A stretch of DNA of 48,127 nt from Candidatus Bathyarchaeota archaeon. Its GTDB lineage: Archaea; Thermoproteota; Bathyarchaeia; TCS64. Positions 23,723-27,378 of this stretch are shown here, one piece after another. The position numbers were made by a program, and so were the translations under genes. The stretch spans positions 1 to 48,127 of the forward strand of contig JBDRQD010000059.1 of assembly GCA_043826455.1 (NCBI GenBank), in the 5' to 3' direction. The stretch's first letter is position 1; the number at the start of each line of letters is the position of its first letter. Below the pieces are notes generated by a model that saw only the letters and a list, made by a program, of their open reading frames with translations, searched no databases and was not told the origin of the DNA.

Positions 23723-23825
23723 AGTGGGCTGGAAGCCCCGGGCACACATTGTACGAATATTTTTCATTAAATGTTTAAAATTCATAAAACTTTAAAAAAT
23801 GACCATAATATTCTATATGTATAAA

Positions 23826-25376
23826 ATGCCGAACTTTTGTCCTCGATGTGGGTCAGCACTAAAACATGATAACGCTAATTTCTGCATGGAATGCGGTTTT
23901 AATCTTCAAACATCTGACGTTGAAAAAGTCTCGGAAGAAAGCCCGATTCCTAAATCCACCAATATTTATGATCTCGGAGAAAAGATGGAAGAAAAAGTTG
24001 AATTTATTTTTATGGCCAAAGGATATGAAACAAAGCGACGACAAAGAATCAAAGGATCATCCGATACAATAAGTGAAATAGATATTTTAGCATATAAAAA
24101 CCGTAGGACAATAGCTATTGAATGTAAAAATTATTCAATACCAATAGGGACAAGCCAAATACGTGATTTTTTAGAAAAATTACGGGATTTAAAAATTCCA
24201 AATGGTTATTTTATAACAAATTCTGATTTTACTAAAGGTGCTACTAAATTCGCTCAGTATAATAACATTGTTCTATGGTCAGGAGAACAGATCCGAGACG
24301 AATTTTGGCAAGCAAATATAGGTCGAACTGATGAAGGAAAAGAACGTTCTCTTAAAAATTCTTTACCTATTCAAATTGGTTATGAGAAAGCGGTAAATCT
24401 GGATTTAGTAAATAAGGATAAAATTCAGATCGCTGCATCATATCTTCACTATAAACCATACTATGTTATTGAGTATCTGTTCAAAGACAAATACGTTGAT
24501 CCGTCGAAAGAGTCGCATAACTTCATTGATGAAGGACTGGTATTGATTGATGGGCGAGATGGAAAAATATTAAATAAAGTTGATTTCACGGGAAAAATCC
24601 GTAATATAATTTCAAGTTCAGACGAAGAAGTTGATTTAAAAATAAAAGACGAGCTTCAACATTATGATAAAACCGAGAACTATCGAATACTCCCCGATCA
24701 ATTCATTGTTAGTGTTATGGAACCTCAAGTACAAAACAGATATGTGCATAAATTAGCTATTGATTACATTACTGAAAAAAATACACATAAAATAAGTTAC
24801 TTACCTAAATCTGCTGAAACGGTATTTGACACCAAAGCAGTCACATATACGCCAAAGAGGAATAAAATCATGATTAAAAAAGTGAATTTCCTTTATGTTC
24901 CCAAATGGAAAATAAAGTATCAATCATCCGACTATGAATACTCCAAGGAACTATACGCCTACTCGGGAACTAAACTAGAAGACACAACTGAATACTGCCC
25001 AAACCATTTTCAAATCGGCGGATTAAGATTTGTCACTAAAAAAACCCATGCAGTGTGTGAAGTATGCGGAAAGGCTCTGTGCAACGAACACATTTACAAA
25101 TGTCCAACGTGCGGAAAATGGCTATGCATTGAATGTGGGGCTACATGTTCAAGTTGTAATAGAGTAATTTGTCAGGAGCATATTCATAATCAATGTTCTG
25201 TGAGTCAACAGAATATATGCGACGATTGCACAGTCACGTGCCCGATTTGTGGTAATATCTATGGAAGAAGACATGAAGTTACGTGCTCGCAATGTGGCAC
25301 TATTGTATGCAAAAATTGCTCGCAATCTAAGGGCTTGATAATGAAAAAGCAATATTGTATTAACTGTCTTTCCTGA
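23826..25376 (+). CDS. Mrr-like PD-(D/E)xK restriction endonuclease with N-terminal zinc ribbon and C-terminal multi-zinc-finger array
   Basis: CPRC..CMEC; EIDILA..IECKNY..TNSDFT; repeated CxxC/CxxH tail; very AT-rich; alternative ATG at 23799. Confidence 0.85.
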   Translation: MPNFCPRCGSALKHDNANFCMECGFNLQTSDVEKVSEESPIPKSTNIYDLGEKMEEKVEFIFMAKGYETKRRQRIKGSSDTISEIDILAYKNRRTIAIECKNYSIPIGTSQIRDFLEKLRDLKIPNGYFITNSDFTKGATKFAQYNNIVLWSGEQIRDEFWQANIGRTDEGKERSLKNSLPIQIGYEKAVNLDLVNKDKIQIAASYLHYKPYYVIEYLFKDKYVDPSKESHNFIDEGLVLIDGRDGKILNKVDFTGKIRNIISSSDEEVDLKIKDELQHYDKTENYRILPDQFIVSVMEPQVQNRYVHKLAIDYITEKNTHKISYLPKSAETVFDTKAVTYTPKRNKIMIKKVNFLYVPKWKIKYQSSDYEYSKELYAYSGTKLEDTTEYCPNHFQIGGLRFVTKKTHAVCEVCGKALCNEHIYKCPTCGKWLCIECGATCSSCNRVICQEHIHNQCSVSQQNICDDCTVTCPICGNIYGRRHEVTCSQCGTIVCKNCSQSKGLIMKKQYCINCLS

Positions 25377-25403: not shown

Positions 25404-25452
25404 TTGGCGCCCCGGGGAAGACTCGAACTTCCGGCCACCTGATTAACAGTCA
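25404..25452 (-). repeat. att-like 49-bp duplicate of the 3' part of tRNA-Asn
   Basis: Identical to 27302..27350. Confidence 0.95.
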
Positions 25453-25688
25453 TGACGCCGCCAGTATTCAATAAGACATTTTAACTATTTATTCGCTGCC
25501 CGGGTAAAATTAGTTAATTTATGTAGTGTAGAAGAATTGTTTAAAAATTTTAAAAATCCAAACATCTAAAACTTGCGTTGTGTGACTCGTTGCACTCACT
25601 CTGAGACTAAGGTTGTTAGAATTTGGTAAGTGTTTAATATATCTGTAAAACAACCTAAATTAGCAAGAAGGAATGAAAAATATCTGAG

Positions 25689-26036
25689 CTGAGTGAATTA
25701 CTTGAAGTCAGCCGGGATATACTGAAATGGATCAAGTTCGCTAACTACGACAAAGTGAAAGGTGTTCTTGAGAAAATACTTTCTGACGACGACAGGAAAC
25801 TGGTCTATCATCTAAGTGATGGAGTCAACACGTCCCGAACAATAGCAGCTAAGACACCTGTATCTCATAATACCGTATCCGTCTGGTGGAAAGCATGGTT
25901 TAACATGGCTATCATTGATAATATTCCAGTTCAAGGTGGGGGGACAAGAGGCAAGAAAGTGTTCAACCTTGAAGACTTCGATATACCCATACCCAAATTG
26001 CCCGAAAAGAATGCTGAGGAGAAACAGGCAGAATGA
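25689..26036 (+). CDS. Winged-HTH-like protein A (probable CTG start at 25689; GTG 25755 in the track)
   Basis: VYHLSDG..TSRTIA....VSHNTVS HTH-like segment; frame open upstream to 25677. Confidence 0.7.
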   Translation: MSELLEVSRDILKWIKFANYDKVKGVLEKILSDDDRKLVYHLSDGVNTSRTIAAKTPVSHNTVSVWWKAWFNMAIIDNIPVQGGGTRGKKVFNLEDFDIPIPKLPEKNAEEKQAE

Positions 26037-26419
26037 GTGAACCAGACCGCCTACTAGAGGAACTCCAGGCTATCAAGTTCCTGCTAACTCTCAGTAATTC
26101 CGAGGTGGTTGACACTTACATGAATAAAGTAATATCAACCACCACAAGACGTAAGATGTGGACACTTATTGATGGTAGACGATTTGGAAATGACATAGCT
26201 AAAGAAGTAGGTACATCTCCAGCTGCTGTATCATATTTCTTAACTTCAGTTCAGACGGCTGGCCTAGTGAAGTATGATAGTAAAAGTCCCCCAAGAAGAG
26301 TCATTGATTACACACCATCTGAATGGTTTAAGGAGATAGAGGAAGCTGAAGCGAAGAAGAAGCCCACAGAGGGTGCAAACCAAGAGGTTAAACCCAAGGA
26401 AACTGAATCTCAATACTGA
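26033..26419 (+). CDS. Winged-HTH-like protein B (ArsR-like)
   Basis: MWTLIDG...NDIAKEVGTSPAAVSYFL...AGLV; ATGA overlap with protein A. Confidence 0.75.
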   Translation: MSEPDRLLEELQAIKFLLTLSNSEVVDTYMNKVISTTTRRKMWTLIDGRRFGNDIAKEVGTSPAAVSYFLTSVQTAGLVKYDSKSPPRRVIDYTPSEWFKEIEEAEAKKKPTEGANQEVKPKETESQY

Positions 26420-26427
26420 AATAAGCT

Positions 26428-27246
26428 ATGATTTCCAGTGATTTACGTGATCAAATTCTTTCTAGACTGGGAAAAAGTATTCCTTGGTTCTATGCTGAAT
26501 TAAGACAGATAAGTGAGAATCTGGGTTTCTCATTTTCAAATAGAATAATTGCATATGTGTTTGCATATGAAAACGGAGTTGATCCCTCTCCCTTCATCAA
26601 AGATGAAGAGTTAGCAGAGTACCGTCAGGCTATTCAGATGAGACGAACCATGGGGCTGGTTCCATCACCGCAAACCCCAGTATCAATACCTGAAGATAAG
26701 ACTGTTAGGAAGAGTACCCCACGACTCCCGAAGCCCGTATTTGTACAGATACCTGAAATGGAACGGTTAAATGTGCCCAACTTAGCGAAGGAAATAGTAA
26801 ATGACGCATCTGAAATGGCTAAGATATACCCTCTGATCTACCTGTACGAGAATAGTGTCCGTGAGTTCATCAAGGAAGTGCTGGACAAGCGAAGCCCAGA
26901 TTGGTGGGATAAAGTCAACAAAGGAATAAAGGATAGGGTGGAGGATAGGCAGAGGACTGAAAAACAGAACGCCTACCATGGTAAATTACGGGTTCACCCC
27001 ATACAGTACGTTGATCTTGATGATCTCCGCAACATCATCCAGTCTAATGCAATAATCTTCAATGATTACATGCCCGACAAGAATGTGGAGTATCTACAGC
27101 AAAAACTCAGAGAATTGAAAGACAGTCGAAACATCCTGATGCACTGCAACCCGTTAACCCAAGACGACATGCAGCGGGTCCGCCTTTACTTTGCTGATTG
27201 GGTGCGGCAACTCAAAGGTATGCTGGATTTTCTACATAAAAAATAG
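26428..27246 (+). CDS. Swt1-like HEPN domain protein (putative RNase)
   Basis: YLYENSVREFI, WW, YVDLDDLRNII and the Rx4H motif RNILMH. Confidence 0.82.
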   Translation: MISSDLRDQILSRLGKSIPWFYAELRQISENLGFSFSNRIIAYVFAYENGVDPSPFIKDEELAEYRQAIQMRRTMGLVPSPQTPVSIPEDKTVRKSTPRLPKPVFVQIPEMERLNVPNLAKEIVNDASEMAKIYPLIYLYENSVREFIKEVLDKRSPDWWDKVNKGIKDRVEDRQRTEKQNAYHGKLRVHPIQYVDLDDLRNIIQSNAIIFNDYMPDKNVEYLQQKLRELKDSRNILMHCNPLTQDDMQRVRLYFADWVRQLKGMLDFLHKK

Positions 27247-27302
27247 AAACAAGGAACAAAGAGTAATCTCTTCAAACCCTCTAACCTCTGGGGGTTGTTT
27301 GT

Positions 27303-27378
27303 TGGCGCCCCGGGGAAGACTCGAACTTCCGGCCACCTGATTAACAGTCAGGCGCTCTACCTACTGAGCTACCGAGGC
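27303..27378 (-). tRNA. tRNA-Asn (GTT)
   Basis: 76-nt cloverleaf GCCTCGGTAGCTCAG...CTGTTAA...GTTCGAG...CCGGGGCGCCA with encoded CCA. Confidence 0.97.

Follow-up and report, generated by a model that had tools for sequence, protein, structure and literature searches.

HEPN RNases recur in several small defence and toxin–antitoxin (TA) operons. In HEPN–MNT TA systems, an RNase with an HEPN Rx4-6H motif is encoded by the last gene of the operon, and in PDC-M34, a PADLOC candidate system, a DUF5343 protein is paired with a short Swt1-like HEPN protein; PDCs are presented as candidate systems without testing in a preprint (10.1101/2024.01.29.577857) whose available main text does not mention M34. 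In the type IX retron-Kva2, a winged-helix (WH) protein and nucleic acid are reported to restrain an HEPN RNase until infection (bioRxiv 10.64898/2026.07.14.738597), the system being composed of a reverse transcriptase (RT), msDNA, HEPN and WH, with a 245-aa three-domain WH protein and an HEPN that lacks Rx4-6H. A three-gene layout of regulator, second small gene and toxin on mobile DNA is described for the TA system PaaR2–PaaA2–ParE2 (PMC8630535), and nearly a third of archaeal genomes are reported to show no defence system beyond CRISPR and restriction–modification (PMC12988326).

The stretch of DNA analysed here (the window; 48,127 nt of a Candidatus Bathyarchaeota archaeon contig) carries two winged helix-turn-helix (wHTH) genes, A and B, followed by an HEPN gene, C, which the original prediction took for a candidate new defence or tripartite TA system. 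The module is real, conserved, apparently unnamed and of an effector-based defence or TA type, but it belongs to a family of arrays with swappable effectors and is not a fixed triplet. Judged from sequence, it is probably an undescribed antiviral system, and when all readings considered below are combined, some antiviral or anti-plasmid role is likely. Its new elements are an RPA-related, AROD-like domain on toxins and expandable wHTH arrays.

No named system was matched in the libraries and literature searched. The literature search, which excludes most subscription journals and DefenseFinder, returned, among the entries listed, no description of these arrays, and the available portions of PMC12988326 and PMC6563490 contain nothing on them. 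The module is not HEPN–MNT because A, B and C, the only genes of the islet, yield no nucleotidyltransferase match, in agreement with the earlier remark that the usual MNT antitoxin is absent; it differs further in its Swt1/Abi2-like HEPN family and its two wHTH paralogs. Nor is it PDC-M34, because the DUF5343 partner is missing from the islet: residues 112–262 of C match PDC-M34B (E = 2.4e-43), with the AROD-like domain of C lying outside that match, but neither A nor B matches PDC-M34A (DUF5343), which the control L019 matches at E = 5.4e-54. A genome-wide search for PDC-M34A gave no match, and the control was likewise silent in that search. L019 (1495–2671, minus strand) is itself a clean archaeal PDC-M34 pair of DUF5343 and short Swt1-HEPN genes. 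The likeness to retron-Kva2 is a functional analogy only, with no RT gene among the islet ORFs; it is a precedent for restraint of an HEPN protein by a WH protein. PaaR2–PaaA2–ParE2 is an analogy of layout, from which the present loci differ in that the small genes are paralogous wHTHs, one to eight in number, and the toxin family is exchangeable. Archaeal defence is under-catalogued, and PADLOC does not recognise the present module as a system.

The islet and its operon

Genes A, B and C lie between two att-like repeats, a distal one (25404–25452) whose 49 bp duplicate the 3' part of tRNA-Asn exactly and a proximal one (27302–27350) inside the tRNA gene, and the core of the repeat occurs only these two times genome-wide. 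The integration site is tRNA-Asn(GTT) (27303–27378, minus strand), a defence-islet hotspot of the genus. The interior is 1.85 kb long with a GC content of 0.413 against 0.578 for the genome, and the three genes are its sole cargo, as had been stated. The islet has no integrase gene; six integrases are encoded on other contigs of the genome. Among read-derived contigs we found neither an excision joint nor an indel at the A-run preceding gene A; in the one covering read run, which may be the source of the assembly, word depth, which does not equal copy number, was 10–11 for islet contigs and ~15 for the flanks.

Other genomes of the genus show what else occupies this position. The closest genus match at the flank, genome G144 (86–87% DNA identity), carries a 1.9-kb islet bounded by the same 49-bp repeat and encoding AbiEi (E = 1.3e-82) and AbiEii (E = 1.9e-55), and this use of the same att site by AbiE upholds the defence-type context that had been proposed. 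In genome G024 the site is empty, with 41 bp from the upstream host gene to the tRNA. Genes A, B and C are absent from all 13 genus regions compared at tRNA-Asn, and presence is patchy more generally, with an HEPN-profile match in the window and in 5 of 31 same-genus genomes. Just outside the att pair, a 525-aa gene with a GC content of 0.34 (23799–25376, plus strand) encodes a protein whose N-terminal Zn ribbon and Cys-rich C-terminus accompany an Mrr_cat nuclease domain (E = 8.6e-17); it is likely to be another defence gene, probably acquired earlier at this hotspot. Tandem islets are seen at tRNA-Asn in L165 (G144:C97, 1813–8917), where AbiE is followed by a second complete tRNA-Asn copy and, beyond it, a low-GC gene, ≥470 aa long, that matches nothing in Pfam or PADLOC; tRNA-Asn is likewise present in two copies in L169.

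The operon is as tightly packed as first described. Gene A (25680–26036, plus strand; ~118 aa) encodes a long N-terminal helix and an ArsR/TFE-alpha-like wHTH, and its stop shares the sequence ATGA (26033–26036) with the start of gene B (26033–26419, plus strand; 128 aa), which encodes a helix and a wHTH; an 8-nt gap (26420–26427) separates B from gene C (26428–27246, plus strand; 272 aa), which encodes an AROD-like domain, a linker and a Swt1-like HEPN domain. The reading frame of A is indeed open upstream of the called GTG, but the proposed extension to CTG 25689 probably does not reach the true start, which is probably a non-canonical ATA at 25680. This assignment rests on the aligned codons of the three closest homologs (ACG, ACG and TTG), on an AAGGA that ends 7 nt upstream of the ATA and on a TTTAATAT box ahead of gene A that is common to the window, L004 and L006. 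Judged by Shine–Dalgarno spacing and by the codons of the homologs, ATA is the better candidate, and two other starts, CTG 25689 and a frameshifted ATG at 25673, were rejected. The TATA-like box (25633–25640) lies in a putative archaeal promoter (25628–25649, plus strand) with similar counterparts in L004 and L006. No operator palindrome was evident across five aligned leaders, and a sigma70 promoter scan, using a model unsuited to archaea, stayed at chance level. An out-of-frame ATG ORF of four codons (25673–25687) overlaps the proposed ATA start and recurs in L006; it could tune translation.

This arrangement would suit a module that serves tripartite TA or addiction and plays no part against viruses, in which A and B are regulator and antitoxin and the whole stabilises integrase-less islets: the small genes come first and the RNase last, translation is coupled, the first gene has a weak start codon, nothing else is carried between the att repeats, the AbiE found at this site in G144 belongs to the type IV TA systems, and PaaR2–PaaA2–ParE2 provides a three-gene precedent. 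We nonetheless consider pure addiction unlikely because arrays can reach eight paralogs and L074, L093 and L101 each hold two effectors, more than neutralisation needs, and because TIR, AlbA_2 and membrane effectors, which also occur in these arrays, are typical components of antiviral systems.

Protein C and its AROD-like domain

Residues 138–261 of C match Pfam HEPN_Swt1 (E = 1.5e-9; 38.5 bits against a cut-off of 27.5), and the fold compares with the HEPN domains of AbiF, AF0298 and Swt1 at Z = 6.7–7.5. The RNILMH motif that had been reported as intact (R234–H239; 27127–27144, plus strand) has both its R and its H conserved across 138 of 138 homologs, these being the full-length sequences of 235–285 aa among 159. 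C is thus predicted from its sequence to be a Swt1-like RNase of the HEPN superfamily. A profile search with C returned 868 representatives at E ≤ 1e-10, and most among the 150 matches listed align over the whole length. Foldseek with the model of C gave no match at E ≤ 0.001, a single-protein scan of a collection of genome contigs found no relative, none of 68 pattern matches in viral contigs was confirmed, and the one matching plasmid record matches in the HEPN part only and has an annotation without an evident array. The Pro-rich linker noted earlier corresponds to a low-confidence stretch at about residues 77–118 of the model. In L021, L025 and L042, a Swt1-like HEPN domain follows an N-terminal region that by eye resembles a tyrosine-recombinase fragment; Swt1 fusions of other kinds are listed in the available part of PMC3710099.

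The N-terminal domain of C, originally described as unknown, can be assigned. Residues 1–58 (26428–26601, plus strand) are modelled as an AROD/DUF2240-like three-helix bundle, followed by an extra helix (59–76), and profiles and model together identify the domain as a homolog of the AROD of Pyrococcus abyssi Rpa1. The top match of a 20-sequence N-domain profile is 8AAJ/8AA9 (E = 1.9e-7; next match 0.0024), which also ranks first with a full-length C profile (E = 4.5e-4), and residues 1–58 of the C model (pLDDT 91.9) align with 8aa9_B at Z = 7.3 (2.0 Å over 55 residues, 22% identity). Compared with 12 RPA N-termini, the N-domain profile reached an hhalign probability of 97.9% (E = 3.2e-13). An Atlas structure search with the domain returned a bacterial Ymh fusion (TM 0.74) and DUF2240 and RPA clusters, and ESM Atlas features gave no usable match. 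Pfam DUF2240 is sub-threshold in relatives (E = 0.0026–0.0042) and does not match C. No homology of the N-domain profile was found to A, to the small family D or to effector families X and Y described below (P < 5%), and the comparison with B reached P = 45.6% over 24 columns only.

AROD (= DUF2240) was originally described as an archaea-specific RPA domain. According to PMC10122647, the only work on DUF2240 in the literature searched, it contacts OB-1 at a site adjoining the ssDNA cleft, using K17 (numbered K16 in the chain) together with E23 and E27, which form salt bridges. The three-helix bundle is common to AROD and C; unlike Rpa1 AROD, the C-type domain is found on toxins and not OB folds, is mostly basic, has the extra fourth helix and occurs in bacteria. 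Among 127 homologs, the K16 site is K/R in 72%, the E23 site D/E in 1% and the E27 site D/E in 4%, and the family median net charge is +4, positive in 93% of 125; across effector N-domains the median is +5 (n = 22) versus −1 in RPA ARODs (n = 13). Since the family is basic and the E23 and E27 sites are rarely acidic, the acidic ssDNA-mimic surface has mostly not been kept, whereas the fold and pattern have. The domain of the window is itself an exception, with a net charge of −1 and E at the E27 site.

These data bear on an alternative in which the AROD-like domain is an integrated decoy or guard that binds OB folds of host RPA or invader SSB, or is the target of an anti-RPA factor of an invader, such that contact clusters and activates the effector and the wHTHs mainly set expression. 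The clear homology to Rpa1 AROD, the reported binding site beside the ssDNA cleft, the K16 equivalent, fusion of the domain to at least four effector types and the AROD-bearing Rpa1 of the host all fit such a role; the loss of the acidic contact sites in nearly all homologs (the window keeps the second), the opposite charge of RPA ARODs and the presence of the system in bacteria (L001, L002 (Anaerolineales) and L112, from the phylum of L002) do not, and on balance a decoy seems improbable.

The host (L110, 1174–2685, minus strand) and further genomes of its phylum (L134–L144) encode RPA-like proteins whose AROD-like N-terminus is near-neutral in charge, not acidic. Three related giant proteins of 974–1740 aa (G000:C8:1-2922, C11:996-6215 and C13:883-5928) contain a weak AROD-like stretch (E = 0.0016–0.04 in one search and 0.007–0.49 in another), with no Pfam match in the two scanned; contig C11 also carries an integrase, and these could conceivably be mobile-element proteins that mimic RPA.

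Coil-wHTH paralogs and exchangeable effectors

A and B are paralogs, as their parallel motifs had suggested. Profiles of 16 and 11 sequences align at P = 98.3% (hhalign, E = 1.9e-14) over 80 ungapped columns that span the N-terminal helix and the HTH, and deeper profiles align at P = 97.3%; BLASTP of A against B found nothing, so profiles were needed. The model of A (pLDDT 89.7) consists of a 20-residue N-terminal helix and a winged helix that matches TFE-alpha (Z = 8.9, rmsd 4.5 Å, 76 aligned) and ArsR-family CzrA (Z = 8.9, rmsd 3.4 Å, 83 aligned), which, as modelled, is the level of a generic wHTH. B gives weak family matches. Unlike ArsR/SmtB and TFE-alpha, A and B fall below all curated cut-offs, have an invariant Trp-rich signature of their own and occur in tandem paralog arrays. 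Homologs number 132 for A and 93 for B, and B has no match in phage records; the Atlas clusters closest to A come most often from Bathyarchaeia. Two small families of related loci, D and E, reach P = 82% and 96.5% when compared with A. Complex prediction of A(1–108), B(1–104) and C, with C as partner, scored 0.00, which counts neither for nor against an interaction. Elsewhere in the host, the region G000:C48:258560-259930 (L094:6561-7939), a patch with a GC content of 26–38%, has a second A-family gene (218 aa, extended at the C-terminus), together with a 243-aa gene without an assigned family and a divergent ParA-like gene.

The association between these genes is conserved. Linkage was counted over the 69 non-redundant loci that searches with C or with its N-domain had yielded, after dropping the window's own locus, the duplicates L005, L014, L041, L113, L131 and L132, and L115. 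A same-strand coil-HTH gene lies within 700 bp of 17 of 17 genes with both AROD and HEPN domains, a count that includes related, hence not independent, loci and for which the D and E profiles had been made from the very loci scored; L112, L116, L133 and L139, outside profile building, all show small-gene arrays. HEPN-only genes have such a neighbour in 3 of 37 cases (20 had <700 bp upstream, the 3 being among the other 17) and AROD-only genes in 5 of 17, the other 12 of which look like RPA (OB folds Pfam-confirmed for L039). A frameshifted AROD-HEPN gene without an HTH neighbour, L009, was counted as HEPN-only. The order A-B-C recurs in L003, L004 (= L005), L006 and L018; the predicted triplet holds as a conserved association but not as a fixed set, relatives carrying 1–8 coil-HTH paralogs. 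Broken copies (L009, L018/L097 and L026) might hint that mobile DNA has brought together orphan HTH genes and an inactive HEPN by chance, but this is extremely unlikely: the complete linkage largely refutes it, the catalytic residues are invariant, the gene order is shared, and codon differences from L003 that are synonymous only are as frequent as replacements in both A (36 versus 34 of 105) and B (39 versus 26 of 105).

Of 401 genomes surveyed from the host's class, 31 contain A-family genes, and the set seeded with A comprises 27 regions from 26 of these 31, with five weak-match genomes left out. By our own tally, 23 of the 27 regions are arrays of 2–8 coil-HTH genes. Inspection of these, L098 aside, showed a candidate effector embedded or adjacent in 21 of the 23 and none in L084. 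Effectors include AROD-Swt1-HEPN (3), AROD-Ymh (2), wHTH-Ymh, wHTH-AlbA_2, a membrane protein family (3), CHAT and, in L083, a 318-aa protein with no family match, together with family X (7), which joins a helical domain to a PD-(D/E)xK-like motif or in one case to HNH, and family Y (4), a wHTH with a PD-(D/E)xK-like motif. Families X and Y are putative PD-(D/E)xK nucleases by motif reading alone, with no nuclease match in Pfam, PADLOC, NCBIfam or PDB. Domains confirmed by library are CAP12 TIR (E = 3.7e-30), Ymh (E = 1.2e-22), AlbA_2 (E = 3.5e-21) and HNH (E = 7.5e-12), the TIR being that of an AROD-TIR protein in L101, an N-domain-seeded locus with a second AROD fusion. Arrays with effectors are found in both archaea and bacteria. 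An AROD effector is present in only 5 of the 23 A-seeded arrays; therefore AROD is one adaptor among several and not a universal docking site.

Such diversity could be served by a purely transcriptional arrangement, with the wHTH array as a stress or infection switch that induces a constitutively active effector without protein contact. A and B have ArsR/MarR-like folds in their models, one switch can serve unrelated effectors, and the effector gene of L095 is on the opposite strand; against this, most effectors share the regulators' operon, often in mid-array (L074, L077, L080, L087 and L088), and neither a ligand-binding domain nor an operator was seen, leaving this account distinctly unlikely.

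Proposed control and killing parts of the cassette

The original prediction of a heterodimeric HTH pair acting on the HEPN protein was right about paralogous wHTHs but too narrow in tying one fixed heterodimer to an HEPN, since relatives vary so widely in paralog number and carry many effectors. We lean, at somewhat less than even confidence, towards an unnamed abortive-infection-type cassette with a constant wHTH control part and a variable killing part. Joined by their N-terminal helices, A and B would form a hetero-oligomer on DNA that keeps C silent in two ways: the shared promoter would be repressed, and the effector would be docked, by its basic AROD-like domain, on this complex or on nucleic acid. 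Infection would disturb the A/B complex or the DNA state that it reads, whereupon freed C would dimerise at its HEPN site and cut host RNA, arresting the cell. A and B may repress or neutralise C, as first proposed; neutralisation of RNase, DNase, NADase and membrane effectors by one wHTH set through direct binding is hard to picture.

An abortive-infection cassette is favoured by the invariance of R234 and H239, the complete linkage of AROD-HEPN genes to coil-HTH genes, arrays in loci unused for profile building, candidate effectors in nearly all arrays, classic defence domains among them, AbiE at the same att site, patchy presence and the retron-Kva2 precedent. We hold it with caution because L009 lacks an HTH neighbour and no effector was seen in L084, because the AROD-like domain of the window departs in charge from its basic family and no operator palindrome was evident, and because the nuclease call for X and Y is a motif reading and profiles D and E were counted on their source loci. 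A more ambitious and rather doubtful proposal is a new immune class in which variable coil-wHTH arrays form a multi-specificity sensor and effectors plug in via N-terminal adaptors, one of them shared with RPA and reporting ssDNA, RPA or invader SSBs; if true, this adaptor would be an archaeal integrated-decoy domain. Reuse of AROD on RNase and TIR effectors would tie the replication machinery to immunity.

By association, the wHTH arrays also point to several candidate effector families that lack annotation. Family X is tied to arrays in L075, L081, L086, L088 and L093, family Y in L077, L087, L095 and L099, and the membrane family in L078, L082 and L089. In L091, L086 and L092, A-family genes have other defence genes as neighbours, encoding a PDC-M50/ThsB-like TIR, an OLD nuclease and a SIR2-like TPR protein.
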